Below, piece after piece: positions 6,697 through 63,323 of a stretch of 64,000 bases of DNA. The position numbers and the translations under genes are program-made. The stretch lies in assembly GCA_965219685.1 (NCBI GenBank), contig CBDCOH010000002.1, forward strand, positions 3,456,001 through 3,520,000, in the 5' to 3' direction. The notes beneath the pieces are model-generated. The model was not told the DNA's origin and made no database searches. It saw only the letters and a program-made list of their open reading frames with translations. This DNA comes from Candidatus Spongiisociaceae bacterium. GTDB lineage: Bacteria > Actinomycetota > Acidimicrobiia > Spongiisociales > Spongiisociaceae. The stretch's first letter is position 1, and each line of letters opens with the position of its first letter.

Positions 6697-7782
6697 TCAA
6701 ACACGTACCGGCATCAACAGGTAGAGGAAGTCCTCATGTCCCTCCGACCTGATGATGCTCGGCTTGAAGCTGTCCACCACCTCGACCTTCACCTCGTCCC
6801 CCTCCAAGGCCGAGACCCCGTCGCTCAGATAACGGGAGTTGAACGCGATGTCGACCTCGGCCGCCTCTCCGCGGTACTCCCCCGGGATTAGTTCGCTCTC
6901 CCCACCCACATCTCGCCGGCTGACCGCTATTTGGACCCCACCCTCGGTGAGCTTCAAGCGGATCGGTATGTGATCCTCCGCGACGAGGGAGGCTCTACCG
7001 ACGGCCTCCAGCAACCGGTCCCTCCGGAGGACGACCTCATTCGGGTAACTCTGTGGGAGGAGTTGGCGGTAGTTCGGAAAACTGCCTTCGATCAGCCGGA
7101 TGCTCAACGAGCCCCGCTCGGAGACAAAGACGACCTCGCGTTCGTGGATGGCCACGCTGATGACATCGGCGGCGACTGTACGGCCCAACTCTCGCAGGCC
7201 GCGCGCAGGCACCAGGCCGGACCCGCCCACCTCCGTATCGGCCAGGTCGCGCACGGCCAACCGGTAGCTGTCGGTCGCCACCAGCCGCAGACCACGGTCC
7301 CCGTCCTCTATCAGCACTCCCGTCAGGATTGGCCGGGCCGAGTCGTTGGAGGCAGCCACGGTCACCTGGCCAACGGCCGCCACCAGTGACTTCCCATCCA
7401 CCTCGACGGCCCCACCGAGATCCGGCTCCGCCAGATCCGGGTAGTCCTCCAAGGCCAGTTGCCGGATCGTGAATCGCGGACCGTTCCCGGATAGTTCGAC
7501 CTCACCGTCGTCCGAGCGGATGGTGATCGCACCCTCCGGCATCCGCCGGATCGCATCCGTCATCAGCCGACCCGGCACCACGAAGCTGCCCTCCTCCACC
7601 ACCTCGACTTCAACCGACGTCCTCACGGTGATCTCGGTGTCGCTTCCTGTCACTCGAAGCTTGCTACCGCCCGCCTGGCAGAGAACACCCCGTAGGATCG
7701 GCAGAGCCGTTTTGACGCCCACCGCTCGGTTGGCGCGACCGAAGGCCTCGGCCAGGTCATCACGATCAGCTCGGATATGCAC
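6697..7782 (-). CDS. dnaN: DNA polymerase III beta clamp
   Basis: LVATDSYRLA, GSFPNYRQL, IAFNSRYL, YLLMPVR. Start moved to GTG 7782 (AAAGGA upstream); the longer ORF runs through oriC. Confidence 0.95.
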   Translation of the reverse strand: MHIRADRDDLAEAFGRANRAVGVKTALPILRGVLCQAGGSKLRVTGSDTEITVRTSVEVEVVEEGSFVVPGRLMTDAIRRMPEGAITIRSDDGEVELSGNGPRFTIRQLALEDYPDLAEPDLGGAVEVDGKSLVAAVGQVTVAASNDSARPILTGVLIEDGDRGLRLVATDSYRLAVRDLADTEVGGSGLVPARGLRELGRTVAADVISVAIHEREVVFVSERGSLSIRLIEGSFPNYRQLLPQSYPNEVVLRRDRLLEAVGRASLVAEDHIPIRLKLTEGGVQIAVSRRDVGGESELIPGEYRGEAAEVDIAFNSRYLSDGVSALEGDEVKVEVVDSFKPSIIRSEGHEDFLYLLMPVRV

Positions 7783-7804
7783 GGCTTGTCCGGTTCCTTT
7801 CTCG

Positions 7805-7975
7805 ACATTGGTTTCTTGTTTTAAATCTAGTTGTAGTGGTAGGGGCTGTGGATTGGGGATAGAGAGGGTGTTCTCCCTGGTCGACGGTGGTTCTGGTTTC
7901 ACCGGTCGGTGTGGAGAAGAACGGGTGCCCTGCGGATGGCGTGACGCGGGGCTGGGGGCGGCTGGGGAAAAGACC
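7805..7975. other. oriC unwinding region (DnaA boxes, DnaA-trios, AT-rich segment)
   Basis: dnaA-dnaN intergenic region. DnaA-box-like TGTGGATTG 7847-7855, TGTGGAGAA 7910-7918, TGGGGAAAA 7963-7971; TAG TTG TAG TGG TAG trios 7828-7842; AT-rich 7812-7826. Confidence 0.85.
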
Positions 7976-9336: not shown

Positions 9337-9372
9337 GTCTCGCGGCCCCTCCTGCAGCCTAAGGGTAAGGTG

Positions 9373-10237: not shown

Positions 10238-10570
10238 GTGTTCGCCAGCTTGAGCGGCTCGCGCGCCTTCGATCGTGTCCTACGAAGCGGGGTCCGGTGC
10301 CGCCGCGGGGGTATTACGGTAGTGGGGCTGGAACGGGGATCCGGCCCGGCCCGGGTGGGGCTGGTGGTCGGACGTCGGGTGGGCAAGGCCGTGGAACGGA
10401 ACCGAGTGAAACGCCGTCTCCGGGCCGGTTTGCGGGAGAGCGGTTTGGAGGATGGCATCGATTACGTCGTGATAGGTAGGGCGGCGGTCGCCGGTGTACC
10501 GTTTCGTACGTTGCGCGCGTGGCTGCGGGAGGCGGTCGCGGTGATCGGCTCGGGAAAGAAAGGCCAGTGA
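10238..10570 (+). CDS. rnpA: Ribonuclease P protein component
   Basis: RVGLVVGRRVGKAVERNRVKRRLR motif; start placed at GTG 10238 (approximate). Confidence 0.9.
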   Translation: MFASLSGSRAFDRVLRSGVRCRRGGITVVGLERGSGPARVGLVVGRRVGKAVERNRVKRRLRAGLRESGLEDGIDYVVIGRAAVAGVPFRTLRAWLREAVAVIGSGKKGQ

Positions 10571-19744: not shown

Positions 19745-20446
19745 CTACCCATACCGCAGCACGGAGAGTCGGTCGGGGAGGCGGCGGAACCCGGTTCCTA
19801 GATACATTGCGGCTGCGGCCTCGTTGTTCGGTGCTGTATTCAGCAACATGGCCGCCGCCCCGTGGCGGGCTGCCCAGCGGATGGCAGCACACGTCAGCCG
19901 GGTGCCCCAACCTCGCCTCCTGTGCGAAGGCGATACGGCGATCCTCTGTAGGTAGGCAGTGATCCCGGAACATCCGACGATGGCGAAGCCCTCGGGCGGG
20001 GATGCGTCGGAGGTCACGATGACGGTTCGGCGGATGGTCGACACGTAGGACTCCCGCAGGGCGGTCTGCCCATTCCTCCAGAGTGGACCGAACGATCTCC
20101 GATCGACTTCGGCGAGCATCTCGAAGTCGGGCGGCGCTTCCCGGACTCCGGGCTCCTCCGGCGGTATCGAGCCGATGAGGCTGCGGCGGTACATATGAAG
20201 CTTGAGGAAGGGCTGGTAGCCCACCTGCAGCCAGGGGTCGGCAGCGCTGTCCAGCAACGGCTGGGACGCAACCTGCTCTACCCCGTAGCCGAGCACATGG
20301 CCGGTGGCCGCCTGCAGGAACCGGGCTCCCCCGCGCTCGAGACGTAGGTATCCGTAGGGGAGGTCGGAGTTCCAGGGCCGGGCGGTCGCCTTGGCCCACC
20401 CCTGCCGGATGGTTACCGGGCCCGGCCAGTCACCGCCGATCTTCAT
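19745..20446 (-). CDS. GNAT family acetyltransferase
   Basis: YLQRIAVSPSHRRRGWG, N.AA..MY...GF. Confidence 0.88.
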   Translation of the reverse strand: MKIGGDWPGPVTIRQGWAKATARPWNSDLPYGYLRLERGGARFLQAATGHVLGYGVEQVASQPLLDSAADPWLQVGYQPFLKLHMYRRSLIGSIPPEEPGVREAPPDFEMLAEVDRRSFGPLWRNGQTALRESYVSTIRRTVIVTSDASPPEGFAIVGCSGITAYLQRIAVSPSHRRRGWGTRLTCAAIRWAARHGAAAMLLNTAPNNEAAAAMYLGTGFRRLPDRLSVLRYG

Positions 20447-20860
20447 AAACCAAGGGCCTTGCTCACCACTTCTCGCTCGGCGGGGTAGGTGAGCTTGCCG
20501 ATGGCGGCTAGCGGCTCGAGGATCACCACCTCGTCGACCTCGTCATCGTGGAGCGCCGGATCACCACCGGTCACTGTGAACCTGAAGAAGTCCACCCGCT
20601 TCTTCACCCTCACACGATCGCGTACGAACCAGTATTCGACGACGCCGGCCCGGGCACGGTCGGCGGCTCGAACCTCGAGCCCGGTCTCCTCGGTCACCTC
20701 CCGGCGGGCGGCCTCGATAGCTTGCTCTCCGGCTTCCAGCAGCCCCTTTGGCAGCGTGACCACGGGCCGGCCCGCCAGGTTCCTGGCCTGCACGACCACC
20801 AGCCTCCCGTCGGCCGTCAGCACGACCCCGCCGGCCGAGTGCTCGAATACCGTCCTGATG
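20443..20860 (-). CDS. NUDIX hydrolase (start uncertain)
   Basis: SAGGVV, LPKGLLEAGE..IEAARREVTEETG Nudix box. Confidence 0.85.
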
Positions 20861-20961
20861 ACTCCCCCGATCCCCGGGCGTAGCCCGATCCTGGTCGGCG
20901 GGAACCCCGTCCGGCGGGTGGGCAGAGCGAATCCTAATTCGGGGGGGAGTAGCCTCAGGAC

Positions 20962-21981
20962 ATGGACGTCCTGCTCGTCACCCATCCGGTGTTCGGTGAG
21001 CATGACACCGGGCACGGCCATCCGGAGCGCCCGGCTCGCTTACCGGCGGCGCTGGCAGGCGTACGGGAGTCACCGGCCACGGTCGCCGAGGAGAGCGCCC
21101 CCGAGATCGACAGAGACCTCCTCGGGTTGGTTCACTCTCCCGGCTACGTGAACCGTATCGAACGATTCTGCGCAGCAGGCGGGGGCGCGCTGGATCCGGA
21201 CACGCGAGCGGTCCCCGCCTCGTGGGAGGCTGCCTTGAGAGCGGCGGGAGCGGGCCCTCTGGCCGTCCGGAGGCTGGAGGATGGCAGTGCTGACGCGGCC
21301 TTCTTGGCGGTTCGCCCCCCCGGTCACCACGCCCGGCGGTCGACCGCTATGGGTTTCTGCCTCTTCAACAGCGTCGCGGTGACGGCGGCCATGCTCGCCG
21401 AACGAGGCGAACGTGTGGCGATCATCGACTGGGACGTACATCACGGCAACGCCACGGAGGAGATGTTCCGCTCCCGGGAGGACATCCTCTACGTCTCGCT
21501 TCACCAGTATCCGTTCTACCCGGGGACGGGAGGCCTGGTCGACATGACCGCGGACCGGGCGGCGGCCACAACCCTGGATTTGCCCCTTCCCGCGGCTACG
21601 GCCGGAGACCTGTACCGCGTGGCCTTTCCCGGACTGGTCGCGCCGGTGGTCGCCGGGTTCCGTCCGGACTGGTTGCTTGTCAGCACCGGCTACGACGCCC
21701 ATGCCCACGATCCCTTGGCCGAGCTCCGCCTGCTGGCCTCCGACTACGCGTTCATGGCCGGGGCGCTGGCGGCGGTGACGCCGCCGGGACGCACCATCTT
21801 CTTCTTGGAGGGCGGCTACGACCTCGATGCGATCAGGGAGTCGGCCTCGGCGACCATCTCCGGGGCGGCGGGGATCGCAGTGCCCGACGAGGAGAGCCGT
21901 TTCCGGTCACCGGAGGTCGCCTTCCGGATACTCGAGGCGGTGGTCGATGAAGCGCGAAAGGCCTGGGACCTACCGTGGTGA
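20962..21981 (+). CDS. Histone deacetylase family protein
   Basis: HPERPAR, RPPGHHA, GFCLFN, DWDVHHGN, LEGGY. Confidence 0.95.
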   Translation: MDVLLVTHPVFGEHDTGHGHPERPARLPAALAGVRESPATVAEESAPEIDRDLLGLVHSPGYVNRIERFCAAGGGALDPDTRAVPASWEAALRAAGAGPLAVRRLEDGSADAAFLAVRPPGHHARRSTAMGFCLFNSVAVTAAMLAERGERVAIIDWDVHHGNATEEMFRSREDILYVSLHQYPFYPGTGGLVDMTADRAAATTLDLPLPAATAGDLYRVAFPGLVAPVVAGFRPDWLLVSTGYDAHAHDPLAELRLLASDYAFMAGALAAVTPPGRTIFFLEGGYDLDAIRESASATISGAAGIAVPDEESRFRSPEVAFRILEAVVDEARKAWDLPW

Positions 21982-22045
21982 GTGGTGAGCGGACACTGGT
22001 TACTGACTAACGTCCAGCAACCACCAACCACCAACCACCAACCAC
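21975..22045 (+). repeat. (GTGGTGA)x2 ... (CAACCAC)x4
   Basis: G/T heptamers 21975-21988 include the stop codon; A/C heptamers 22018-22045 precede the next ATG. Confidence 0.85.
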
Positions 22046-22049
22046 CACC

Positions 22050-23453
22050 ATGATTCCTGAACGCCTGAAATGGCTGGATAGCGGCCCCACGCGTGCCCTG
22101 GCCGAGTTGTTCACTCGTGCAGGGCACGAGATCTATCTCGTCGGCGGCTCGGTTCGCGATGCTCTACTCGAAAGACCGGCCGACGACCTGGACCTCGCCA
22201 CCGACGCCCGACCCGACCGTCTCAAGGCGCTCCTGCGCGACTGGGCGGATTACCTGTACCTCATGGGCGAGCGGTTCGGGACCGTCGGTGCCCTCCGGCA
22301 GGGGACACGTTACGAGATAACCACGTTCCGGGCCGAGGCGTACGTATCGGACAGCCGCCAGCCGGTCGTGACGTTTGGGAACTCCATCGCGGCCGATCTC
22401 GAGCGGCGCGACTTCACGGTCAACGCCATGGCCCTGAAACTTGGGGAGGGCACTCCCTCCCTCGTGGACCCGTTCGGCGGCTTGACCGACCTCGCCGCCA
22501 GGACCCTCCGCACCCCGATCGGTCCGTCGGTCTCCTTTTCGGATGACCCGCTCCGGATGGTCCGCCTGTTCAGGTTCATGGCCGAACTCGGCTTCCATCC
22601 CAACCCCGAGGAAGTGGAGGCCGTGGCCGACATGAAGGAGCGCCTGGACATCGTGAGCGCCGAGCGGATCCGGGACGAGTTCTCGAAGCTGGTGCTGGGG
22701 GAGTGGGCGTCGCCTGCCCTGTCCCTGATGATCGAGTCGGGGCTGGCCGCCGGGTTCATCCCGGAGGTCCCGGCGCTGGCGATGACCGAGGATCCCGACC
22801 ACCGGCACAAGGATGTGCTGGCCCACTCGCTGGCCGTGATGGCCAAGACCGAGCGCGACCTGGTGCTCCGCCTGGCCGCCCTGTTCCACGACGTCGGCAA
22901 GCCGGACACCCGAAGGTTCGACGGTCCGAAGGTGACCTTCCACCATCACGAGGTGGTGGGGGCCGTCATGACCCGCAAACGCCTGCGCCGACTCCGCTAT
23001 CCGAAGGCCATAGTGGACCAAGTCGCCGAGTTGGTCTTCCTGCACATGAGGGCCCACACCTTCAAGATGGGATGGACGGACTCGGCCGTACGGCGCTACG
23101 TGCGCGACGCGGGGGAGTTGCTGCCGAAACTCAACCAACTCGCCAGATGCGACGTCACCACCCGGAGCGACCGGCGGGCACGGCGGATCCAGCGCCAACT
23201 GGACGAGTTGGACGAACGGATAGAGCAGCTACGAGCCCAGGAGGAGATCGATTCTCTGCGCCCGCCCATCGACGGGCATGATGTGATGGCCTACCTCGGG
23301 ATCGGTCCCGGTCCGATGGTGGGTTCCATGCTCCGGATGCTCCTCGCCAAGCGGATCGACGACGGCCCCTACGAGCGCTCGGAGGCCTTCGCTCTGGTAC
23401 GGGAGTTGGCCCTCGCGGAAGGCATGGACGATCCGGGCCCTGTGCCGTCGTAG
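22050..23453 (+). CDS. CCA tRNA nucleotidyltransferase with HD domain
   Basis: LVGGSVRD, DLDLAT, RRDFTVNAMA, DDPLRM, FHDVGK. Confidence 0.93.
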   Translation: MIPERLKWLDSGPTRALAELFTRAGHEIYLVGGSVRDALLERPADDLDLATDARPDRLKALLRDWADYLYLMGERFGTVGALRQGTRYEITTFRAEAYVSDSRQPVVTFGNSIAADLERRDFTVNAMALKLGEGTPSLVDPFGGLTDLAARTLRTPIGPSVSFSDDPLRMVRLFRFMAELGFHPNPEEVEAVADMKERLDIVSAERIRDEFSKLVLGEWASPALSLMIESGLAAGFIPEVPALAMTEDPDHRHKDVLAHSLAVMAKTERDLVLRLAALFHDVGKPDTRRFDGPKVTFHHHEVVGAVMTRKRLRRLRYPKAIVDQVAELVFLHMRAHTFKMGWTDSAVRRYVRDAGELLPKLNQLARCDVTTRSDRRARRIQRQLDELDERIEQLRAQEEIDSLRPPIDGHDVMAYLGIGPGPMVGSMLRMLLAKRIDDGPYERSEAFALVRELALAEGMDDPGPVPS

Positions 23454-23561
23454 GAGGAGCTGGCTCTTGACGGCTGCTTGGGGACCGCCGCCACCGCTCG
23501 TCGGCGTCCGTGACCCCATCCCGGAACCGGACCGACGCCCGCGTGAACCGGGGGCGACGGC

Positions 23562-25046
23562 ATGAGGCGGGAGTGGAGGGTTCTGGTCGCCTGCACTCCG
23601 GCCATTATCATCCAGGGGTTGGACATCACGATGATCAACCTGGCCCTTCCTTCGATCGGTGAGGGGCTCTCGGCCGAACTAGCCGACCTTCAATGGGTCG
23701 TGGCAGCGTTCGCTCTCGCCATGGTCTCGCTGCTTCCCACATCGGCGGCCATAGGCGACCTCTACGGCCGGCGCCGAGCGCTGCTCCTCGGATACGGCAT
23801 CATGGCTGCCGGGGCGCTGCTCGCGTGGTCGGCGGCTTCGATACCTGTGCTGGTCATCGGGCGGATCGCCCAGGGGATCGGGCTGGCCCTCGGCGCGCCC
23901 AACTCCTTCGCGATAGTGGCGCTCTCCTTTCCGCCGGAGGAACGCGGTAGAGCGCTGGGACTGTGGACCGCCATCTCGGCGGTTGCGTTCACGCTGAGCC
24001 CGATAGTGGCGGGTTGGCTGGTGGAGTCGTACGGGTTCAACGCGGTATTCGTCCCACTGCTCATGTTCGCGGTGATCGGGGGTGCGGGCAGCTCGATTTG
24101 GTTGCCAGCGGACCCGCCCACGCACCGCGGCCGCCTCGACCTTGGAGGGATGGCGGTCGCAACCGGGGCGCTGGCCATGCTGAGCTACGGCTTGATCGAG
24201 GGCGGTCGCGACGGGTTCGGGCGTCCGCTCATCGTGGGATCCCTCCTCCTCGGCCTGGCGTGCGCAGGATGGTTCACCCGCCACGAACTCCAGGTCGAGC
24301 ACCCGATGCTCGACCTGCGCCTGATCGGCCGCCCACCGTTCGGGCAGGTGGTGCTGGCGTCCTTCGCCCTGCACACGGCCAGCGGGGCACTGGTCTTCTT
24401 CCTGACCATCTATCTCCAGGCCCTGCTCGGCTACTCCGCGTGGGACACCGCCTACGTGATGCTGGCCTACTCGGTGATGGCGCTGATCGGATCGCCGGTC
24501 GCCGGATACCTGACGGATCGAAGAGGTTTCTGGCTGCCTGTCGCGGTGGCGGCTCCCACCATAGGGCTGAGCGCGCTCCTCATGAGCCTCGCCGGCCTGG
24601 TATCGCCGGCCGTCGCGTATCTCGTGGTCGCCATGGCGCTGGCGGGGGCCGTGCACGGAGGATTCTTCGTGGGGGCCGGCGCGGCCGCCTCCACCAGGGT
24701 CCCCGAGGACCGGACCTCGACTGCGGGTGCCTCCCTATCGGTTTCCCGCCATCTCGGCAGCGGGTTCGGGATAGCGGTGTTCGGTGCCCTCGCCACGATG
24801 GTGACCAGAGCGAGGATCCGTTCGGCAATCGCCGACGACGCGGACGCCGAGGCGTTGGTCGCCTCGATGAGCTTCGGCGCGCCCCCCGAAGGCATCGAAG
24901 CAGCGGTGGCGGCCGCCCATACTGAGGCTTCGCTCACCGCCTTCGGAGTGGTGATGGTGGTGATCGGCGTCTGCTCCCTGGCGGTCGGAGCCCTGGTCGC
25001 GCGGCTGTTGCTGACCAAGGGTGGCTGGAGGAAAGCGCGGCGGTGA
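23562..25046 (+). CDS. MFS transporter, DHA2 (14-TM) type
   Basis: LDITMINLALP, GDLYGRRR, GRIAQGIG, PMLDLRL. Confidence 0.9.
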   Translation: MRREWRVLVACTPAIIIQGLDITMINLALPSIGEGLSAELADLQWVVAAFALAMVSLLPTSAAIGDLYGRRRALLLGYGIMAAGALLAWSAASIPVLVIGRIAQGIGLALGAPNSFAIVALSFPPEERGRALGLWTAISAVAFTLSPIVAGWLVESYGFNAVFVPLLMFAVIGGAGSSIWLPADPPTHRGRLDLGGMAVATGALAMLSYGLIEGGRDGFGRPLIVGSLLLGLACAGWFTRHELQVEHPMLDLRLIGRPPFGQVVLASFALHTASGALVFFLTIYLQALLGYSAWDTAYVMLAYSVMALIGSPVAGYLTDRRGFWLPVAVAAPTIGLSALLMSLAGLVSPAVAYLVVAMALAGAVHGGFFVGAGAAASTRVPEDRTSTAGASLSVSRHLGSGFGIAVFGALATMVTRARIRSAIADDADAEALVASMSFGAPPEGIEAAVAAAHTEASLTAFGVVMVVIGVCSLAVGALVARLLLTKGGWRKARR

Positions 25047-25164
25047 GTGGTGAGTGGTGAGTGGTGAGTGGTGAGTGGTGAGTGGTGAGTGGTGAGTGGT
25101 GAGTGGTGAGTGGTGAGTGGTGAGTGGTGAGTGGTGAATGGTGAATGGTGAATGGTGAATGGTG
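25040..25164 (+). repeat. GCGGTGA + (GTGGTGA)x13 + (ATGGTGA)x3 + partial unit
   Basis: Counted directly; begins at the MFS stop codon. Confidence 0.97.
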
Positions 25165-25329
25165 TTAACTCTGGGAGGGTACTCGACTACCGGGCTAGGA
25201 CCGACCACGATGAGCCAGCTAGAAGTGGTGGACCCCCATTAGGTGGGGTAGTCGTTCACGGGCAACCGGCAACCACAGGTAGCCTTGTGACCCTATGGAG
25301 AGGGCGTCCGACGAGGAAGGAACACGAGG

Positions 25330-25815
25330 ATGGCGGCGGTGACCGAAGAACTTCGGGAACTCGTGGGGCGGCGCGCTGTCTACACGGCCCCCGACGAAGT
25401 AGGCAGATCCGCGATCCGCTACTTTGCCCGGGCTGTCGGCGATCCGTGCCGGCTTTACGTCGACGCCGACTATGCCCGCGAGCACGGCTACGAGGACGTG
25501 ATCGCACCGCCCACCTTCGTGTGCGAAACCAACCAGTACATGCCGGGCGAACCCGATCGGGACGGCTACCCCGGACATTCGTGGGGTATCGAGTTGGAGG
25601 GTACCCGCATGATCCGGGGGGGTCACGAGTACGAGTTCCACCGGCCGCTATACCCCTCGGACGTCATCACGGCGACCTGGACCATCACCGACGTCTTCGC
25701 GAAGGAGGGTTCATCCGGTAGCTTGACCTTCCTCGTGTCGGAGGCCCGGTACACGAACCAGCGAGCCGAGCTGATCGCGGTGAACCGCGAGACGCTCATC
25801 TTCCAGGAGATCTGA
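25330..25815 (+). CDS. MaoC-like dehydratase, N-terminal (HadA/FAS1-like) type
   Basis: IRYFARAVGD..YVD, IAPPTF, YEFHRPL. Confidence 0.85.
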   Translation: MAAVTEELRELVGRRAVYTAPDEVGRSAIRYFARAVGDPCRLYVDADYAREHGYEDVIAPPTFVCETNQYMPGEPDRDGYPGHSWGIELEGTRMIRGGHEYEFHRPLYPSDVITATWTITDVFAKEGSSGSLTFLVSEARYTNQRAELIAVNRETLIFQEI

Positions 25816-25816
25816 T

Positions 25817-26224
25817 ATGCCGATGCAGGTCGAGGTGGGTGACCCGCTCCCCGGGTTCGGCCGGAACCTGGATCAGGCCCGGCTCGTGATGTACGCCGGC
25901 GCCACCTGGGACTGGCACCGCCTCCACTACGACACTGAGTACGTGAGGGAGCACAAGCTGGCTGCGCCCCTGGTCGACGGCCAGATGCTGGGAGCCCTGT
26001 TCGCCGAGCAGGTGTATCGTCACTTCGATCCCGGGGCCCGCATCACCGCCATGAAGCTCCGGTTCCGGTCGATGGTCTATGCCGGTGAGCGGGTCGAGAT
26101 CAGCGGCGAAGTCAGTTCTGTCGGGCATGCCGACGGTGGTCGGACAGTGGTCTGCAACCAGGCGGCCGCCGTTGGATCCCGGACCACCACCATCTGCCTC
26201 ACCGAGGTTCTCCTACCGGGGTAG
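25817..26224 (+). CDS. MaoC family dehydratase
   Basis: YAGATWDWHRLHYD, LVDGQML hot-dog fold. Confidence 0.85.
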   Translation: MPMQVEVGDPLPGFGRNLDQARLVMYAGATWDWHRLHYDTEYVREHKLAAPLVDGQMLGALFAEQVYRHFDPGARITAMKLRFRSMVYAGERVEISGEVSSVGHADGGRTVVCNQAAAVGSRTTTICLTEVLLPG

Positions 26225-26571
26225 GCGGGGCGGGACCACCCCGTCCCGACGCCAGGAGTCCGGAGCTCGCGAAAAACCGCGACCTCCGCTCAGCTCGATG
26301 GGCCCCTCCCCCGCGGCCACCACCGTCGTCCTGGAAGGCAGGTGTGCGCGGAGCTCCCCGTGTGGCCCCGGGGCCCTGCCTCTCCAGCCCCCGACAGGGC
26401 CAGAACATCATGGATGACCGCCGCGTCCGGACCGGCGTTGCTTGTGCTTCGGCAGGATCCATCATGCACGAGGGGTGTGACACGTTCAACCCCCTTGTGG
26501 CAGAGGGCGTCCTGAGGGGCGCTTTGCGGAGGGTGTCGAGCGGAATGCCGGTGGCCCTGGACGGTCGGCCG

Positions 26572-27270
26572 TCAGCCGCGCCTTCGCTCGATTGCCTTCA
26601 GAGCCTCCCGCCTGCTGAGAGTCGACAGGCGGTGGCGGTTCGCGGCCACGAAGTCGATCACGACCTCAGGGCCGGTCTTCGAGTACTCCCTCAGGGCCCA
26701 GCCGATCGCCTTCCGCAGGAAGAACTGCTTCTCGGCGATGGACGGTTCGATCAGGGCGAAGAGAAGGCCGGGGTCGGTGTCGGCCTTGAAGCGGAGCTGG
26801 GCGAGGATGGCCGTCCGGCGCCTCCAGATGTCGGCGTCCTCGGCCCACGACAGCAGTACCGGCCGGATGTCCGCGGGGTACGAAGCGAGGAGGTGACCCA
26901 TGTGCTTGCCCGCCAGTTGATCGACGTAGTCCCACCAGGCGCCGGTGACGATCATCTCCTCCAGCATCGGCAGGCAGGCGGGCCGCAGCCACGTCCGGTA
27001 GCGCGGCGCGTACGCCATTTCGATCGCTCCGTAGCGCTCCTCCCTGCGAGTAGCCGAACGCCATGTCTCAAGGATGACGTCCTCCCAGGAGGCCGGGTCC
27101 GGGATCGGGTGGGCCTTGATCACGGCTCGGGCAATGCGCCGGACCTCCGGAACCCTGACACCGTGAAAGGGCAGATCCGACTTCATGTACCGCTGCTGGC
27201 CCTTGGCACGCTCCGGGTCACCGGCGGCGGACAGGCGGGCGATCAGGTCGGCCCGCAGGGATAGGGTCAT
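26572..27270 (-). CDS. DNA alkylation repair protein (AlkD-like)
   Basis: YMKS..PFHGV, WWDYVD, FFLRKAIGWALREY, LSRREAL. Confidence 0.9.
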   Translation of the reverse strand: MTLSLRADLIARLSAAGDPERAKGQQRYMKSDLPFHGVRVPEVRRIARAVIKAHPIPDPASWEDVILETWRSATRREERYGAIEMAYAPRYRTWLRPACLPMLEEMIVTGAWWDYVDQLAGKHMGHLLASYPADIRPVLLSWAEDADIWRRRTAILAQLRFKADTDPGLLFALIEPSIAEKQFFLRKAIGWALREYSKTGPEVVIDFVAANRHRLSTLSRREALKAIERRRG

Positions 27271-27332
27271 CCAGGATCGGAGCGGTACTTCGGGCAGCGC
27301 CGGGGGGCACGGATCACGTGTCAGCCCACCGC

Positions 27333-27692
27333 CTAGTCGTCCAGAAAGCTCGCCACGCGGGTCTTGGGTCGTCCCACGATGGCGCGATCTCCACGAACTA
27401 CCACCGGTCTCTGCAGGAGTGCCTTGCGTCGCTCAAGCAGATCCACCACCGCAGCGGGGTTACCAACGTAGTCGCCGGCGACCAGGCCGAGCTTCCTGAA
27501 GTTGTAGTCCTTCCTCACCAGGTCCTCCACGGGATCCTCGAGGATCTGCGCCAGCCACTGGAGGGTGGCGCGGTCCGGGGGCGTCTTCATATACAGCACC
27601 AACTCCACGTCGAGCCCTCGCTCCTCGGCGACCGCCAAGGCGTTTCGCGACGAGCTTCAGTGGGGGTTGTGGAAGATCGTGACGTCAGCCAT
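27333..27692 (-). CDS. ArsC/Spx-family reductase, probable selenoprotein (UGA at codon 12)
   Basis: ATG 27692: MADVTIFHNPH-TGA-SSSRNALAVAEERG...LLQRPVVV..DRAIVGRP. The TGA (27657-27659) aligns with the catalytic Cys of HNPxCSxSR. Confidence 0.85.
27613..27656 (-). promoter_or_regulatory. SECIS-like hairpin
   Basis: After the UGA: upper stem CCUUGGC/GCCGAGG with GGUC loop 23 nt from the UGA; lower pairing AGCUC/GGGCU and UCGC/GCGA. Confidence 0.7.
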
Positions 27693-27766
27693 CGGGAGCC
27701 CCTTCCGTTGCAGCAGGATCGAAATCCACCAATTCTCGGGCGGAGGCTAATACCGTCCCACCCCTG

Positions 27767-28612
27767 ATGACTTCCCGACCGGTCGCGGTGGGCGTCCTAG
27801 CGACTGTGCTCACCCTTTTCCTCGTGGCCGACCAGGCCGCGATCGCCACGCCCGACCAGTACCTGCCCGCCAATCCCGTGCTCCAGCCGGGCGAGTCGCT
27901 CGCGCCCGGCCAGGCGGTGGCGTCGTCCAACGGCCGTTTCCGGCTCGTCTTCCAGCGTGACGGGAACCTCGTCCTCCTCGGGGACGGTTCGGTCCAGTGG
28001 ACGTCGGGCACGGCGGGACTGGGTGCGGACAGAGTGGTCCTGCGCAACGGCGTGCTCGAGATGTCCCGGTCCCTTCAGTGGGGATCCGAGATGGTATGGA
28101 AGTCGAGAAGCGTCGGCGCTGGCGGGGCCGTACTCTCCGTCAGGGACGAGGGCGGGGTCGTCATCCGGCGCGAGGGCAGCCCGATATTCTGGTCGGCGGC
28201 ACTCCCGGCTCCCGACGTGGGCCTTGCGGGGATCAAGCACGTCGTCTACGCGCGGGGTGATCAGATGGTGTGGCTGGTGGGCGCCGACGGCACCCTCTTC
28301 GACTCCTATCCCGTGAGCGGCCGTGCCACCTGGCCGGTACCCGGGCGCTACAAGGTGTTGTCCAAGTCACCGCGGTCGCAGGCCCTGGCCGGACATGTGT
28401 GGATGGAGCACATGGTGCGTTTCATCCAACCGAAAGGCCGGGCGGCCACGGGCTTCCACTCCATCCCGGTCACGTGGAGCGGGAGACCGATCCAGACCGA
28501 GGAGCAACTGGGTACGTTCCGTTCCTTGGGCTGCGTGCGCCAGCGGAACGACAAGGCCGAACAGCTATACGACTGGGCACCCCTCGGCACGCCGGTCATC
28601 GTGGTCGCCTGA
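27767..28612 (+). CDS. Secreted bulb-type (B-)lectin plus L,D-transpeptidase, paralog 1
   Basis: Signal peptide; L.PGQ..SSNGRFRLVFQRDGNLVL..W; YkuD motif GFHSIP...SLGCVR. Confidence 0.85.
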   Translation: MTSRPVAVGVLATVLTLFLVADQAAIATPDQYLPANPVLQPGESLAPGQAVASSNGRFRLVFQRDGNLVLLGDGSVQWTSGTAGLGADRVVLRNGVLEMSRSLQWGSEMVWKSRSVGAGGAVLSVRDEGGVVIRREGSPIFWSAALPAPDVGLAGIKHVVYARGDQMVWLVGADGTLFDSYPVSGRATWPVPGRYKVLSKSPRSQALAGHVWMEHMVRFIQPKGRAATGFHSIPVTWSGRPIQTEEQLGTFRSLGCVRQRNDKAEQLYDWAPLGTPVIVVA

Positions 28613-28751
28613 CACCACTATCGGGTCCCGGTCGGTAGGGAGAGGGTTTCTCAAGCGGTAACCCCGCCGTAGAGCGCGAAAAATAGGGCGTGAAAATACC
28701 CTCATATAGAGGGCGCGCGGGTACCGCGAACCGATACGATTTCGCACTCTC

Positions 28752-29609
28752 ATGTCTTTTACGCGAGTGCGCGCGATGGCGATCAGCGCCCTGGCGGCAG
28801 CGGTGGCGCTGGCCTCAACGGTCGGTCCGGCGGCTTCCGCCCTACATCAAGCCGCACTGCCCGATAGATGGGTGCTGGAGGCAGGCGAGGTTCTGACCCC
28901 CGGTCAGGCGCTGGTCTCCCCGAACGGCCGCACGAAGCTCCGATTGGATCATGACGGGGATCTGGTCCTCTACCGGGATGGCGCGCCCACGTGGTCGTCC
29001 GGCACCACGGGCACCGGCGCCGACAGAGTGATCATGCAGGCCGACGGCGAATTGGCACTCTACGGGCCGCTTGCCTACGGCGCCCAGCCCGTCTGGAGGT
29101 CGAACAGCGGAGGATTCCCGGGGGCGGTTCTGTCGGTGCAGGACGAGGGTGGGGCGGTGGTTCGCGGGCCGGAAACCCCGATCCTCTGGTCGGCAGCCCT
29201 TCCGGCCCCCGACGTGGGCCTTGCGGGCGTGAGGCACATCGTCTACGGGCGGGGTGATCAGATGGTGTGGTTGGTGGCGGCCGACGGCACGCTGTTCGAC
29301 TCCTATCCGGTCAGCGGTAGGGCCACCTACCCGCGACCGGGCCGCTACAACGTGTTCTCAAAGTCACGGTACACGCAATCTCGAACGGGAACCGTCCTGA
29401 TGGAATACATGGTGCGCTTCCTGAAACACTTGCCGGCCAGGTCGGTGGGTTTCCACACCATCCCCGTGACTCGTTCGGGAAGGCCCGTCCAGACGGTCGA
29501 CGAGCTGGGACAGTTCCGTTCGGCGGGATGCGTGCGCCAGCGGACCGACAAGGCCGAGCAGCTCTTCCACTGGACGCCGGTCGGGACGCCCGTGGTGGTA
29601 CTCGCCTGA
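28752..29609 (+). CDS. Secreted bulb-type lectin plus L,D-transpeptidase, paralog 2
   Basis: LVSPNGR..L..DGDLVLY..WSSGT, MQADGEL.LY; GFHTIP...SAGCVR. Confidence 0.85.
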   Translation: MSFTRVRAMAISALAAAVALASTVGPAASALHQAALPDRWVLEAGEVLTPGQALVSPNGRTKLRLDHDGDLVLYRDGAPTWSSGTTGTGADRVIMQADGELALYGPLAYGAQPVWRSNSGGFPGAVLSVQDEGGAVVRGPETPILWSAALPAPDVGLAGVRHIVYGRGDQMVWLVAADGTLFDSYPVSGRATYPRPGRYNVFSKSRYTQSRTGTVLMEYMVRFLKHLPARSVGFHTIPVTRSGRPVQTVDELGQFRSAGCVRQRTDKAEQLFHWTPVGTPVVVLA

Positions 29610-29690
29610 GGCCGTCCGAGGCTTGCGGTTGCCGGTAGCCCCTGTCCACTGATCTATTGTCTGGGGCCGAGCTAGTACGTAGGAGTTGCC

Positions 29691-30215
29691 ATGCCGTACA
29701 AGGAGACCTGGTTCGGGCGTTACTACGAGGACTTCGAGGTCGGTGACGTGTACCGCTCGCCGATCGGTCGCACCATCACCGAGGCGGACAACGTCTGGAT
29801 GACGTTGCTCACCATGAACACCAACCAGTCCCACTTCAACGACCATTACGCGGAGACCACCCCGTTCGGCAAACCGATCGTCAACTCGGGCGTGACGCTG
29901 GCCATCGTGCTGGGCATGAGCGTGATCGACACGTCACAGAAGGCTTTCGCCAACCTGGGCTGGGACCGGATCAAGCTGACCTATCCGGTGATGGTGGGCG
30001 ACACCCTCTACGTCGAGTCGCAGGTCCTCGACAAGCGGGAGTCGAAGTCCCGACCCTACGGCGGGATCGTGAAGGTCCGGACCCGAGGCCTCAACCAGGC
30101 GGGCAAGACGGTGCTGGTCTACGAGCGTTCGATCTTCATCTACAAACGGACCGCCACCCAGGACAAGGGCTACTGGCCGGAACCGGACGTTCCCATCGAG
30201 GAATTGGGCGTCTGA
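29691..30215 (+). CDS. MaoC family dehydratase
   Basis: GRYYEDFEVG, GRTITEADN, MNTNQSHF, ANLGW. Confidence 0.9.
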   Translation: MPYKETWFGRYYEDFEVGDVYRSPIGRTITEADNVWMTLLTMNTNQSHFNDHYAETTPFGKPIVNSGVTLAIVLGMSVIDTSQKAFANLGWDRIKLTYPVMVGDTLYVESQVLDKRESKSRPYGGIVKVRTRGLNQAGKTVLVYERSIFIYKRTATQDKGYWPEPDVPIEELGV

Positions 30216-31225
30216 TGGACCTCGATCTGTACATCTGGTCCGACTCCTTCCCCGAGTTGGAACAGGTGGCTGCATCGGCGGAGCGGGCCGGTTTCCGTAC
30301 GCTGTGGTCGGCGGAGTTGGACCGTTCCGCCTTCATCCCCGTGGCGGTGATGGCCCGGGCGACCTCCGAGATTCGTCTCGGTACTGGAATCGCGTGGGCG
30401 TTCCCCCGCAGCCCGATGGTCACAGCCCTGACGGCGCTGGATCTCGACGAGTTGTGCGGCGGGAGGCTGGTGCTCGGCCTGGGAAGCGGGGTCCGTCGCC
30501 TCAACGAAGCATGGCTGGACGTTGAATGGGACCGTCCCGTCCTGCGCCTGGACGACACCGTCCGCATCGTGCGCGCCTTGGTGGCCGGAGCGCATGAAGG
30601 CCGGCCGATCCGCCACGACGGGGCCGCATCGATCGACCTGCGCGGCTACCGGCGCGCCTTCCATCCGGCGCGCACGGAGATCCCCGTGTATCTGGCGGCG
30701 GTGGGGGAGCAGATGACCCGGCTCGCGGGCCGCACCGCCGACGGATGGCTGGCCCACGAACTCGGCTCTCCCGAGTACGTCCGGCGGCGGATCCTGCCCA
30801 ACATCCTGGACGGTCTGGCCCGGGCAGGTCGAGAGCGTGACCGGATCGACCTGGTGGCGTCGGCCTGCGGCATGGTCCTACCCGACGGTAGGGAAGCCCT
30901 GCGCAACACAGCCGGGCTGGTGGCCTTCTACGCGTCGGTGAAGACCTACACCGCGTTCTTCGCCTTCCATGGATTCGAGCATGAGGCGCGACGCATCCAG
31001 GCTTTGTTCAGGCAGGGTGACATCCGGGGGATGATCGAAGCGGTCCCCGACGAGATGGTCGACACGCTCACGATCTCGGGAACGCCCGACCGTGCCAGGG
31101 AAAAACTCGCCGCCTACGAAGGCCTGGTAGACACGGTCAAGCTCAGCCCCCCCACGCACTTCGTATCGAAGGAAGTCACCCGAGCCGCCCAGCAGTCTCT
31201 GATAGATACGTTCGGTAGTCGGTAG
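30215..31225 (+). CDS. LLM-class (probably F420-dependent) oxidoreductase
   Basis: LGTGIAWAFPRSP, GRLVLGLGSG, PVYLAAVG..M.RLAG..ADG. Confidence 0.88.
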   Translation: MDLDLYIWSDSFPELEQVAASAERAGFRTLWSAELDRSAFIPVAVMARATSEIRLGTGIAWAFPRSPMVTALTALDLDELCGGRLVLGLGSGVRRLNEAWLDVEWDRPVLRLDDTVRIVRALVAGAHEGRPIRHDGAASIDLRGYRRAFHPARTEIPVYLAAVGEQMTRLAGRTADGWLAHELGSPEYVRRRILPNILDGLARAGRERDRIDLVASACGMVLPDGREALRNTAGLVAFYASVKTYTAFFAFHGFEHEARRIQALFRQGDIRGMIEAVPDEMVDTLTISGTPDRAREKLAAYEGLVDTVKLSPPTHFVSKEVTRAAQQSLIDTFGSR

Positions 31226-59011: not shown

Positions 59012-61132
59012 ATGACCACCCCCAACACCTTGACGCATCTGCGCCAGTACCCGCTGAGCCGGACACGGAACATCGGGATCATGGCTCATATCGACGCGGG
59101 CAAGACCACCCTCACCGAGCGCATCCTCTACTACACGGGCCGGACCTACAAGCTGGGCGAGGTCCACGAGGGCGCCGCGGTCATGGACTGGATGGAGCAG
59201 GAGCAGGAACGGGGCATCACCATCACCTCCGCCGCCACGACCTGCGAGTGGTACGGCCACTGGATCAACATCATCGACACGCCCGGCCATGTGGACTTCA
59301 CCGTCGAGGTGGAGCGTTCCCTCCGGGTACTGGACGGCGCGGTGGCGGTCTTCGACGCGGTGGCAGGAGTGGAGCCCCAGTCCGAGACCGTATGGCGCCA
59401 GGCCGACCGATACAGCGTGCCCCGCATCTGCTTCATCAACAAGATGGACCGGGTCGGGGCCGATTTCTTCGCGGCGGTTGATTCGATCGAGGAGCGCCTC
59501 GGCGCCGTACCGATGATCATGCAACTCCCCATCGGGGAGGAGACCGGCTTCACGGGTGTCATAGACCTGATCGAGATGGTCGCCCACACCTGGAAGGGCG
59601 ACGACGGGCGCACCTGGAACACCGGCCGGATCCCCCCCGAGTACGCGGTCCTCGCCGACGAGTACCGCGGGCAACTGGTCGAGCAGGTGGCCGAGATCGA
59701 CGAGAAGCTACTCGAGAAGTACATAGAGGACCTCGACATCTCCCCGGGCGAGATCACCAGCGCCGTCCGGGCCGGCACCCTCCAGCATCTGTTCACCCCG
59801 GTGTTCTGCGGCTCGGCCTTCCGCAACAAGGGCGTGCAGTTGCTGCTGGACGCGGTGGTCGCGTACCTCCCCAGTCCGGTGGACGTCTCCGCCATCCAGG
59901 GGTTCCTGCCGGACGACTGCCGGGGGCCCGTCACGCGTGCACCTGACGACAGCGAGCCATTCGCCGCGCTCGCCTTCAAGATCGTCAGCGATCCCCACGT
60001 CGGCAAGCTCACCTACTTCCGGGTCTATTCCGGCCACGCCCCCAAGGGCGGGAGGGTCATGAACTGCACCAAGGGCCGCAAGGAGCGCTTGGGCCGCCTG
60101 CTCCGGATGCACGCCAACCACCGGGAGGACCGCGACGACGTCTTCGCCGGCGACATCGTGGCGGCGGTCGGACTCAAGCACACCGCCACCGGGGACACCC
60201 TCTCCGCGATGGGCCATCCCGTCCTGCTCGAGGCCATGAGCTTCCCGGCCCCCGTCATCTCGGTGGCCATCGAGCCGCGGTCCAAGGCCGACCAGGAGAA
60301 GCTGTCGGAGTCGCTCGCGCGGCTGGCCGAGGAGGATCCCACCTTCCTGGTGCGCATCGACCAGGAGACCGGCCAGACGATCATCTCCGGCATGGGGGAG
60401 CTCCACCTCGACATCCTGGTCGACCGCCTGGTCCGGGAGTTCAGGGTCGATGCCAACGTGGGCCGTCCCCAGGTGGCCTACCGGGAGACGATCAGGGGTC
60501 CGGTCCGACGCGTGCAGTACCGCCACGTCAAGCAGACGGGCGGCAAGGGCCAGTTCGCGGTGGTCAAGGTGGATCTCGAGCCCACGGGCCCGGGAGGCGG
60601 CTACGAGTTCGTGGACGAGATCAAGAGCGGGGCGGTCCCCCGCGAGTTCATCCCCTCGGTCGATGCGGGCATCGAGTCGGCGCTGGACCAGGGAGTGCTG
60701 GCGGGCTACCCGCTGGTCGACGTGCGGGCCCGCCTCGTGGACGGCCAGTCCCACGATGTGGACTCCTCCGAGATGGCGTTCCGCATCGCCGGTTCGATGG
60801 TGCTCAGGGAGGCCGCCCGCCGGGCCGGCGTGAAGCTCCTGGAGCCGGTGATGGAGGTCGAGGTGGTCACGCCCGAGCAGTACATGGGCGAGGTGATCGG
60901 CGACCTGTCGTCGCGGAGGGGACGCATAGGCGAGATGGGTCAGCGTGGGAACAACCGGGTCATCAACGCCCGGGTTCCCCTATCGGAGATGTTCGGCTAT
61001 GTTACCGATCTGCGGTCCAACACCCAGGGCCGTGCCACGTCGAGCATGCAGTTCCACTCGTACAACGACGTACCGGATCAGGTTTCCCAGCGCATCGTCG
61101 CCTCGGTGCGCGGCGAGTACATAGGAGGTTGA
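59012..61132 (+). CDS. fusA: Elongation factor G
   Basis: [29 protein letters not shown]. Confidence 0.98.
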
Positions 61133-61138
61133 CACACC

Positions 61139-62326
61139 ATGGCTAAGGCGAGGTTTGAGCGGGTTAAGCCGCATGTGAATGTTGGGACTATGGGTCATAT
61201 TGATCATGGTAAGACGACGTTGACTGCTGCGATTACTCGGGTGTTGTCTGAGCGGGTGGCTGGGAATACGTTTACGGTGTTTGATGAGATTGATAAGGCG
61301 CCGGAGGAGCGTGAGCGGGGTATTACGATTGCTATTGCGCATGTGGAGTATGAGACTGTGGGTCGTCATTATGCGCATGTGGATATGCCGGGGCATGCGG
61401 ATTATATCAAGAATATGATTACGGGTGCTGCTCAGGTGGATGGTGCGGTGTTGGTGGTGTCGGCGGCTGATGGTCCGATGCCTCAGACGCGGGAGCATGT
61501 GTTGTTGGCGCGTCAGGTGGGGGTGCCTTGTATTGTTGTGGCGTTGAATAAGGTTGATTTGGTGGATGATGAGGAGTTGTTGGAGTTGGTGGAGTTGGAG
61601 GTTCGGGAGTTGTTGGATGATTATGGGTTTCCGGGGGATGACGTGCCGGTGGTGCCGGTGTCGGCGTTGGCGGCTTTGGAGGGGGATGAGGCTGCTGCGG
61701 GGGGTGTGCTGGAGTTGATGGATGCGGTGGATTCGTATGTTCCGGTTCCGGACCGTCCGGTGGATCGGCCGTTTTTGATGCCGATCGAGGATGTGTTTTC
61801 GATTACTGGTCGGGGGACGGTGGTGACTGGGAAGGTTGAGGCTGGGGTGGTTCATGTGGGTGATCCGGTTGAGGTGGTGGGGATTCGGGAGACTCGTCGT
61901 ACGGTGGCGACGGGGGTGGAGATGTTCCGTAAGTTGTTGGATGAGGGTCGGGCTGGTGACAATGTGGGGGTGTTGTTGAGGGGGGTGCGCAAGACGGAGG
62001 TGGAGCGGGGTCAGGTGTTGGCTGCTCCGGGGTCGATCACGCCGCATACTGGGTTCGAGGCTCAGGTGTATGTGTTGACTAAGGATGAGGGTGGTCGGCA
62101 TAATCCGTTTTTTGCTGGGTATCAGCCGCAGTTTTATTTCCGTACGACGGATGTGACTGGTCGGGTTGCGTTGCCTGATGGGGTGGAGATGGTGATGCCG
62201 GGTGATAACACTCGTATGTCGGTGGAGTTGGGTTCGGCTATTGCTATGGATGAGGGGTTGCGGTTTGCGATTCGTGAGGGTGGTCGTACTGTGGGTGCGG
62301 GCACTGTCACCAAAATCACAAAATAA
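61139..62326 (+). CDS. tuf: Elongation factor Tu
   Basis: [31 protein letters not shown]. Confidence 0.98.
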
Positions 62327-62376
62327 CCGGAAGAACACAGGGCCGTCGAGCACTCAGGAACCAGCGAGAAAGCGTC

Positions 62377-62685
62377 ATGAAAGAACCAAGGATCCGGATC
62401 AAACTAAAGGCGTACGACCACCAAGTGGTGGACGAGTCTGCGCGCAAGATAGCCGAGACCGTGATCCGCACCCAGGCGATAGTCCACGGTCCGGTCCCGC
62501 TTCCCACCAGGGTCCATAGGTACTGCGTGATCCGTTCGCCTCATGTCTACAAGGACTCTCGCGAACACTTCGAGATTCGTACCCACAAGCGGCTTATCGA
62601 CATCCTCCGCCCCACGCACAACACAATCGAGTCGCTGATGCGGCTCGACCTTCCGGCGGGGGTGGAAGTGGAGATCGAGACATGA
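62377..62685 (+). CDS. rpsJ: 30S ribosomal protein S10
   Basis: [29 protein letters not shown]. Confidence 0.98.
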
Positions 62686-63323
62686 GCCCGGCCGCGATCC
62701 TCGGCGAGAAGGTGGGCATGACCCGCATCTTCGACGACCAGGCGCGTGCCATCCCCGTGACCGTCATCAAGGCCGGCCCCTGCCACGTGACCCAGATCCG
62801 CACCGAGGAGACCGACGGGTACGCCGCCGTGCAACTCGCCTACGGCAGCATCAAGCCCCGCGGGGCCAACAAACCGGCTGCCGGGCACTACGCCAAGGCG
62901 GGGGTCGAGCCGGCGCGCCACCTTCTCGAGGTTCGGGTGGACGACGTCGACGGGTTCGAGCTAGGCCAGAAGCTGCGGGTCGGCGACCTGTTCGTCGCCG
63001 GCGGCAGGGCGGACGTGACCGGCGTCTCCAAGGGCAAGGGTTTCCAGGGAGTCATGAAGCGTCACAACTTCCACGGCCAAGCCGCCAGCCACGGCGCCCA
63101 CAAGGTCCACCGGGCACCCGGCGCCATCGGCGCGTGCGCCACGCCGGCCCGGGTCTTCAAGGGCACCAAGCTGCCCGGCCGCATGGGCGGCGAACGAACC
63201 ACCGTCCTGAACCTCGTGGTGGTCGGGGTGGACACCGAGCGCGACCTCCTGGTGCTCCAGGGCGCGGTGCCCGGGCCCAAGGGCGGCCTGGTCTTCGTGC
63301 GGGAGGCGGTGAAGAGTGGCTGA
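62682..63323 (+). CDS. rplC: 50S ribosomal protein L3
   Basis: [25 protein letters not shown]. Confidence 0.98.

Follow-up and report, generated by a model that had tools for sequence, protein, structure and literature searches.

Why should an essential gene use almost exclusively codons that end in G or T, when its neighbours in the same operon do not? This question is raised by tuf, the gene for the elongation factor EF-Tu, in a stretch of 64,000 nucleotides (the window) from a Candidatus Spongiisociaceae bacterium of the Acidimicrobiia (assembly GCA_965219685.1, contig CBDCOH010000002.1, positions 3,456,001 to 3,520,000). The contig is called C2 here, and coordinates without a contig name are those of the window. 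An earlier sequence-only reading had described the bias as a deamination signature confined to tuf, and as the candidate for an undescribed system. We found instead that this tuf is one of two copies held identical by gene conversion and that the pair is a genetic repeat of intense nucleotide skews (GRINS). The full explanation that we favour, a homogenised GRINS pair shaped by gene conversion that the mismatch-repair protein NucS biases, is given a probability of about 0.5, the support for NucS being correlative.

The tuf coding sequence (CDS) of the window, copy A (61139..62326, + strand, 395 amino acids), lies in the str operon 3' of fusA, in the gene order rpsL-rpsG-fusA-tuf-rpsJ-rplC as read from the translations, and its product is a normal three-domain EF-Tu matching the Pfam families GTP_EFTU, GTP_EFTU_D2 and GTP_EFTU_D3. 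Codon endings were expressed as GT3, the fraction of codons ending in G or T. The third positions of the 395 sense codons comprise 226 G, 151 T, 15 C and 3 A (377/395 G/T), giving a GT3 of 0.954, about 8.5 standard deviations (SD) away from the genome-wide mean of 0.468 (SD 0.057, crude set of 3443 genes). The first and second codon positions are far less affected (GT1 0.635, GT2 0.496). As the sequence-only reading had counted, codons 1-89 end in G or T throughout and the earliest exception is codon 90, ATC; from the genome mean GT3, the chance of 89 consecutive G/T endings is roughly 1e-29 (0.468^89), and the bias is therefore real and far beyond chance. Leucine, which had been read as always TTG, is encoded by TTG 26 times and by a CTN codon once. 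The G/T-rich body of the gene comprises codons 1-387 (61139..62299, +), with a GT3 of 0.90-1.00 in each 30-codon bin, on the strand with leading-strand polarity. The flip at the end of the gene was also confirmed, as the nine final codons (62300..62326, +), GGCACTGTCACCAAAATCACAAAATAA, form an inverted tail of eight sense codons and the stop, in which seven of the eight sense codons end in A or C. Longer inverted tails occur in relatives whose tuf is only partly skewed.

The neighbouring genes are normal, in agreement with the earlier reading. GT3 is 0.52 in rpsL, 0.47 in rpsG, 0.44 in the upstream control fusA (59012..61132, +), 0.48 and 0.38 in the downstream controls rpsJ and rplC (62377..63323, +), and 0.48 in rplD, and the first 20 codons of rplC include 12 ending in C and none ending in T. 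In 300-nt windows, the GC skew climbs to 0.38-0.57 inside tuf and is back to about 0 outside. An antisense open reading frame of 457 amino acids over tuf (60980-62353, - strand) was rejected as a gene since it has no Pfam family; it is open because tuf contains no TTA, CTA or TCA codons.

The second copy, tuf copy B, is located at C2:2697919-2699103 (- strand), 0.8 Mb from copy A, with genes for tRNA-Tyr, tRNA-Thr and tRNA-Met upstream. By blastn, a segment of 1198 bp (61134..62331) is identical at 1197 positions to C2:2697911-2699108 on the opposite strand, and the identity ends 5 nt 5' of the ATG and 5 nt 3' of the stop codon. The near-identical second tuf with the same skew, for which the sequence-only reading had proposed to look, is thus present, and its view of tuf as the only gene affected does not hold. 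The flanks of both copies show no clear skew beyond the homology. The main text of PMC8256042 defines GRINS as duplicated sequences longer than 500 bp in which the mean absolute GC skew and TA skew each exceed 0.15; the two skews correlate with each other and peak at third codon positions, both skew signs can occur on one strand within an element, the amino-acid composition is altered, and there is a link to gene conversion. When the genome was scanned in 150-nt windows with a 30-nt step, using a threshold of >0.15 for both mean absolute skews, the duplicated tuf segment gave a mean absolute GC skew of 0.48 and a mean absolute TA skew of 0.31 (fusA, 0.08 and 0.13), with a correlation of r = 0.39 between the two skews within tuf. 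The pair is longer than 500 bp and more than 80% identical, the skew is concentrated at third positions, and the amino-acid composition is moved towards G/T-rich codons. Both thresholds were passed by 61 of the 113 duplicated regions >500 bp in this genome vs 78 of 2000 random 1200-bp segments (3.9%), and the three most intense of the duplicated regions are a fasciclin gene repeat and the two tuf copies. The tuf pair is therefore an unusually clean case of a class that was named in 2021 (PMC8256042), and not an undescribed system.

The dependence of the skew on a near-identical second copy is seen across the Acidimicrobiia. Among 40 relatives, GT3 is 0.85-0.98 in most tuf genes, whose flanks are normal, and the remaining tuf genes are either intermediate or normal. 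The two copies were aligned as DNA wherever coordinates were listed. Pairs at least 98% identical were found in 31 genomes, with GT3 ranging from 0.56 to 1.00 and reaching at least 0.64 in 30 of them. The low outlier, G031, has copies 99.4% identical and a GT3 of 0.56, with only the first 40 codons reaching 0.85. The four genomes whose copies are 87-93% identical (G054, G351, G309 and G212) have GT3 values of 0.42-0.53, and in assemblies of at most 10 contigs with a single tuf, GT3 is 0.42-0.51 in 15 of 16 genomes. In the aligned pairs, the skew stops at the homology borders, 1-37 nt from the start of the CDS, and no skewed tuf has abnormal flanks. Mismatches between tuf copies are few (about 20), 2 of them within the first third of the gene. 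On a tuf tree of 106 proteins, 71 rows of known state comprise 46 identical and skewed, 23 single or diverged and normal, and one exception each way, and all five well-supported independent contrasts agree (p = 0.0625, the minimum possible for five). Both diverged copies of G054 nest within their own genus among skewed relatives; this lineage therefore lost the skew when its copies diverged and did not take in a foreign gene. The skew is thus almost confined to genomes with near-identical copies, supporting the earlier suggestion of recombination between tuf copies, whichever chromosome strand the second copy lies on.

To define the direction of change, the consensus of five unskewed relatives was used as the reference. 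Of the 4-fold sites with consensus C, 32 are G in tuf, 24 are T and one is C; of those with consensus G, 15 are G and two are T; and of the 2-fold sites with consensus C, 57 are T and 10 are C. Synonymous third-position differences between close skewed tuf genes are G<->T in 40/44, 42/54 and 58/77 cases, and strain differences in metagenome contigs are likewise mostly G<->T; among unskewed relatives, the exchanges between tuf genes are C<->G and C<->T. Third positions of skewed genes therefore turn over yet stay within {G,T}. The bias runs along a G+T vs A+C axis that takes in C>G changes as well as unrestricted G<->T exchange, and it is not a deamination spectrum, contrary to the C>T/A>G signature first proposed. 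The bias also reaches the protein, since GT1 and GT2 of tuf exceed those of unskewed relatives. Of the 33 EF-Tu replacements relative to the consensus, 19 increase the number of G/T bases in the first two codon positions, 7 decrease it and 7 leave it as it was. Among the replacements named earlier, K>R (4), I>V (4) and T>V (2) were recovered, and Y>C is absent from the 33.

The orientation of the skew was examined with the help of the replication map. The cumulative GC and G+T skews have their minima at C2:3463802 and C2:3463767, that is, at about 7802 and 7767 of the window, so that a replication origin at approximately 7700..7900, as judged from skew alone, probably lies inside the window, 53 kb upstream of tuf; the terminus falls near 1.15-1.27 Mb by cumulative skew. 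With these positions, both tuf copies are co-oriented with replication, and the G/T-rich strand of each has leading-strand polarity. Moreover, tuf is not the sole skewed sequence of the genome, as other near-identical repeats are skewed inside the repeat only. Nine genes contain in-frame tandem duplications of 0.44-1.2 kb, the halves of which are 98-100% identical in eight and 91.8% identical in one (C2:428611-430986, 938467-940710, 1822985-1825234, 2360761-2363259, 2508210-2510279, 3242918-3245374, 3866688-3868919, 4304561-4306810 and 4380011-4381372). Their frames are Pfam-supported, and the products are mostly "double" ATP-binding cassette (ABC) transporter substrate-binding proteins, with one fasciclin protein. 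In the co-oriented binding-protein genes at 2508210, 3242918 and 2360761, GT3 is 0.73, 0.76 and 0.76 inside the repeat and 0.50, 0.55 and 0.63 outside, respectively. In the head-on fasciclin gene and the head-on binding-protein gene at 938467, it is 0.06 and 0.30 inside and 0.44 and 0.50 outside. Together with the two tuf copies, these five genes make seven cases, and in 7/7 of them the strand rich in G/T is the one with leading-strand polarity.

Each repeat unit is most skewed at its origin-near end, and towards the far end the skew falls or inverts. In the tuf genes of partly skewed relatives, GT3 is 1.0 over the first ~100 codons and declines to 0.1-0.4 at the 3' end, where A-ending codons make up as much as 13-18%. 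The most extreme tuf, that of G182, has no C or A third position in 392 aligned codons and is followed after the CDS by a near-pure A/C shared 3' stretch (GT 0.08). A fasciclin homologue in a genome of another genus, G022, has three tandem repeats with a sawtooth from 1.00 to about 0.40 per unit, and a GT3 of 0.29 inside the repeats vs 0.51 outside; fasciclin orthologues were found in 3 of 10 relatives, the match in G007 covering the first 48 residues only. The gradient within the units of the two head-on genes has the direction of replication and opposes transcription, which argues against explanations based on translation, mRNA or transcription, including the cDNA route considered by the sequence-only reading. 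The skewed strand follows the direction of replication, not of transcription, and the skew is very probably a by-product of homogenisation between repeats, oriented by replication.

The G+T vs A+C axis is the absorbing set predicted from the specificity of NucS, also named EndoMS. The genome encodes a NucS with NucS_N and NucS_C domains (C2:3185006-3185662, Pfam), and MutS_V and DNA_mis_repair (MutL) had no match in this genome, which is 96.7% complete. NucS is reported to favour G-T, G-G and T-T mismatches and not to cut A-C, with a recognition pocket that favours G or T (PMC8228993; PMC6159521). According to the experiments described in PMC11551744, oligonucleotides directed to the lagging-strand template of M. 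smegmatis were rejected with dG-dT and dG-dG and accepted with dC-dC, dA-dA, dC-dA, dA-dC, dG-dA and dA-dG, with a repair patch of 5-6 bp. Loss of NucS is also reported to increase homeologous recombination (PMC8228993), and deletion of nucS in Haloferax to cause a severe gene-conversion defect (PMC11276520).

In the mechanism proposed here, bacteria of this kind would have no MutS/MutL and would leave mismatch repair to NucS/EndoMS, which would act on G-T, G-G and T-T and be blind to A-C, A-A and C-C. Heteroduplex between the copies would mostly contain one resident strand, the lagging-strand template, which is the coding sequence in co-oriented genes. A resident G or T opposite a donor-derived G or T would be recognised and the incoming strand corrected, hence no conversion would follow. 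A resident C or A would give an unrecognised mismatch, so that a donor G or T could replace it, and a G<->T exchange, forming a G-A or T-C mismatch, would pass. The set {G,T} would thus be absorbing on the resident strand, because resident G/T would be protected, resident C/A convertible and G<->T exchange allowed, and the correct sign of the skew would result from incoming strands pairing mainly with the lagging-strand template. Such a drive to G+T would outweigh codon selection and shift the protein sequence. More tentatively, keto-biased gene conversion through the NucS blind spot might be the cause of GRINS in bacteria that have NucS and lack MutS.

The prediction examined was that homogenised tuf pairs are skewed only with NucS, NucS being scored as a full Pfam match. 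Among near-identical tuf pairs, those of the 17 genomes with NucS have a median GT3 of 0.72 (at least 0.64 in 16 of 17), and those of the 27 genomes without a full NucS match have a median of 0.44, with none above 0.65. The NucS carriers include six Actinomycetota outside the Acidimicrobiia (G476, G463, G629, G423, G759 and G529; GT3 0.68-0.79), and the genomes without a full match include 21 other Actinomycetota (GT3 0.36-0.65). NucS is present in every Acidimicrobiia genome tested except G031, the one member of the Acidimicrobiales whose identical copies are almost unskewed, and in which nucS was matched neither by the Pfam model nor by the NucS protein of the present genome. The tuf pair resembles tufA/tufB of Salmonella and E. 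coli in having one copy after fusA, the other after a tRNA cluster, and an identity confined to the coding region; the latter genes are reported to evolve in concert by gene conversion (PMC11276520). It differs from this type in its skew, as the pairs of five Proteobacteria, 99.3-100% identical, have a GT3 of 0.43-0.65 and no gradient, with MutS present in 5/5 and NucS over the cut-off in 0/5.

Several points weigh against the NucS-biased explanation. The association of NucS with skew has a raw p of 3.7e-7, which is uncorrected for kinship, and the NucS state changes only about three times on the tuf tree, giving 2-3 independent contrasts. G478 has NucS and copies 99.5% identical but a GT3 of 0.43; its relatives are single-copy, and its tuf duplication may be recent. 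Without NucS, G427 and Humitalea reach 0.65, overlapping the weakest NucS carriers (G252, 0.64; G337, 0.66). The assembly of G031 is only 85% complete, and around its nucS region only an ABC-FtsX gene pair is common with G090. G343 has one tuf copy in 8 contigs, yet its GT3 is 0.75. For the genomes of family f1 other than the present one, the identity of the pairs is inferred only from equal protein E-values, and L028 (from G039) and L029 (from G028), two of the five comparators without skew, come from unpublished genomes. The identity of the resident heteroduplex strand is an assumption, and the gradient and the inverted tail are described but do not follow from the NucS model as derived. Four of the nine tandem-repeat genes have no skew, with GT3 near 0.5, as have many insertion sequence (IS) copies, so that the proposal that all repeats are skewed, which the sequence-only reading had put up for checking, was rejected. 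The coding strand of IS and HNH elements is rich in A/C whichever way they lie relative to replication, for which the model gives no account, and the proposal that all repeated genes follow replication was rejected on the same grounds. The GRINS survey, in its main text, reports elements across phyla, though at the much lower threshold of 0.15 (PMC8256042), which 3.9% of random segments pass in the present genome. To our knowledge, some phyla with reported GRINS lack NucS.

Of the alternatives, a mutational origin, which is close to the idea of the sequence-only reading, survives best, although we consider it unlikely. Recombination or replication between repeats would expose the lagging-strand template, C>T and A>G deamination would build the skew, and conversion would spread it. 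The skewed strand is indeed the lagging-strand template in 7/7 cases, C has changed to T at 57 of 67 2-fold pyrimidine sites, and the need for near-identical copies suits any recombination-linked process. However, C>G at 4-fold sites is at least as common as C>T, which C>T followed by T>G over long times could mimic, and turnover between close relatives is mainly G<->T. To leave 0/392 C or A third positions in G182, the bias in an essential gene would have to exceed 100:1. An inverted tail on that very strand would be surprising, and the contrast between genomes that have NucS and those that lack it is left unexplained. The loss of C specific to a strand or to repeats resembles transcription-linked or single-strand deamination and fungal repeat-induced point mutation, but here the sign follows replication, C>G is common, the genes are intact and only one strand is affected. 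In particular, the changes are not transitions only, fusA in the same operon is normal, and head-on genes have the opposite coding-strand sign.

A second alternative, which we find still more doubtful, reverses the order of events, with the skew first and conversion second. It is the hypothesis offered in the Discussion of PMC8256042, whose main text states the GRINS mechanism to be unknown, suggests tautomer-linked polymerase errors and reports an association with RuvA. An error-prone or tautomer-linked polymerase would skew stretches of DNA, and the skewed low-complexity DNA would then convert homologues more. G343 may be a skewed single copy of the kind expected, and G031, skewed in the first 40 codons only despite identical copies, indicates that identity and skew are separable. 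But 15/16 single-copy tuf genes and 4/4 diverged pairs are unskewed, the skew of aligned pairs ends at the homology borders, and 5 Proteobacteria and 22 Actinomycetota without NucS hold identical unskewed tuf genes, showing that conversion needs no skew.

Selection on the mRNA or translation of a highly expressed gene, for instance through G/U endings that lower mRNA structure or suit the tRNA pool, is very improbable. In its favour, EF-Tu is among the most abundant proteins, and the skew keeps to the CDS and peaks at third positions. Yet the other translation genes of the same operon are normal, as are single-copy tuf genes, G- and T-ending codons are both used within each 4-fold family, and the fasciclin and 938467 genes carry the opposite coding-strand skew with a gradient against translation. 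In some genomes, such as G182, the skew even extends past the gene into the untranslated 3' sequence that the copies share. A misassembled chimera, or a tuf from a donor with genome-wide G/T-ending codons, would suit the GC content of tuf (0.56, below the 0.66-0.68 of its flanks) but can be practically dismissed, since contigs from three independent studies bridge fusA and tuf and two bridge tuf and rpsJ, more than 40 genomes of the class share the pattern in the same gene context with normal flanks, the tuf tree largely follows taxonomy by family and genus labels, and 0/80 loci from other taxa outside the Acidimicrobiia have a comparable GT3.

Conversion biased by NucS would share with GC-biased gene conversion, which Lassalle and colleagues are said to have treated in 2015, a bias of heteroduplex repair that mimics selection and can override codon preference. 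It differs in favouring G+T on one strand and not G+C on both, and tuf in fact loses GC content, from about 0.66 to 0.56. Ordinary replication-associated GC and TA skew has the same sign, with a G/T-rich strand of leading polarity, but its effect on GT3 is 0.484 vs 0.450, whereas the repeats reach 0.95-1.00, are bounded by homology and invert at the far end. With published GRINS, the tuf pair shares the thresholds, the correlated skews, the third-position emphasis and the conversion link. GRINS are reported to be common in Streptomyces polyketide synthases and to occur in transposases and endonucleases, recoding proteins and speeding the evolution of polyketide synthases (PMC8256042), whereas the present case is an essential, universal gene. 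The main text of PMC8256042 does not mention tuf, elongation factors, NucS, EndoMS or mismatches, although its supplement tables may list them, and no literature linking tuf or NucS to GRINS was found in a scope that excluded those tables; other papers listed as using the term GRINS concern polyketide or peptide synthases. Absent from the GRINS main text and added here are an essential universal gene, a skew oriented by replication, a sawtooth within units, a comparison of tuf genes present as single, diverged or identical copies, and a correlation with NucS.

Other observations concern the tuf tree and the assemblies. The tuf genes of G182 and G170 (L135/L153, GT3 0.99-1.00, family f4) branch inside family f1, by transfer or by attraction through a shared amino-acid bias. 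The copies of the diverged pairs of G212 (L233/L234) and G351 (L212/L213) lie on separate parts of the tree, and one may be foreign. In G031, an ABC-ATPase orthologue at G031:C8:34785-35458 (L326, 8786-9459) is matched by two overlapping segments that lie in different reading frames, perhaps owing to a frameshift. Matches near-identical to 60500-63000 of the window occur in sponge, coral and marine metagenome contigs from 12 studies, and metagenome contigs break inside tuf, as expected of a repeat. In an order-level sample, 102 of 201 assemblies have no intact tuf, and in draft assemblies such as G001, G003 and G013 the gene is often reduced to fragments at the ends of contigs or not present intact, a probable result of identical copies disrupting assembly from short reads.

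Strong skews are also found elsewhere in the genome. HNH-endonuclease elements (~452 amino acids) and IS4/5 transposases have a coding-strand GT3 of 0.25-0.30 (for example, C2:468643-470001, 1412534-1413898, 4118711-4120069 and 171487-172284). Very long open frames (6600-7900 codons), which contain internal repeats and local zones of strong skew at third positions, lie at C2:151705-171546, 172316-196114 and 2993780-3016453. The first ~10.3 kb of contig C1 (30.5 kb) recurs at its end (1-10410 and 20186-30458), and C1 probably represents a circular plasmid of about 20.2 kb whose assembly ran on beyond its starting point. Two adjacent genes on the same strand of C1, C1:4663-5871 (a 402-amino-acid frame with no Pfam family, GT3 0.12) and C1:6037-6408 (a small helix-turn-helix protein, GT3 0.89), have opposite extreme skews with a switch near 5.9 kb. 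A plasmid-wide skew of C1 was rejected, as the skew is local (4.2-6.6 kb).

In summary, tuf offers a cleaner test case for GRINS, being universal, essential and of fixed length, and occurring naturally as one copy, two identical copies or two diverged copies, with and without NucS. The cause of the skew is narrowed in three ways, as it is linked to homogenisation, oriented by replication and directed along G+T vs A+C rather than along transitions, and the known substrate range of the candidate enzyme NucS predicts the G+T vs A+C pattern exactly. The broken or missing tuf genes of draft assemblies bear on marker-gene completeness and tuf-based typing. If the NucS-biased explanation is true, the blind spot of a repair enzyme would be a directional force overriding codon selection and altering a core protein, which would matter for codon-usage studies, tuf phylogeny and the engineering of repeats in actinobacteria. 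Every recombination between repeats in bacteria with NucS and without MutS would then be a strand-specific drive to G+T on the lagging-template strand, one that would recode even EF-Tu against codon selection, change its protein sequence and perhaps add to the ordinary replication skew of these genomes.

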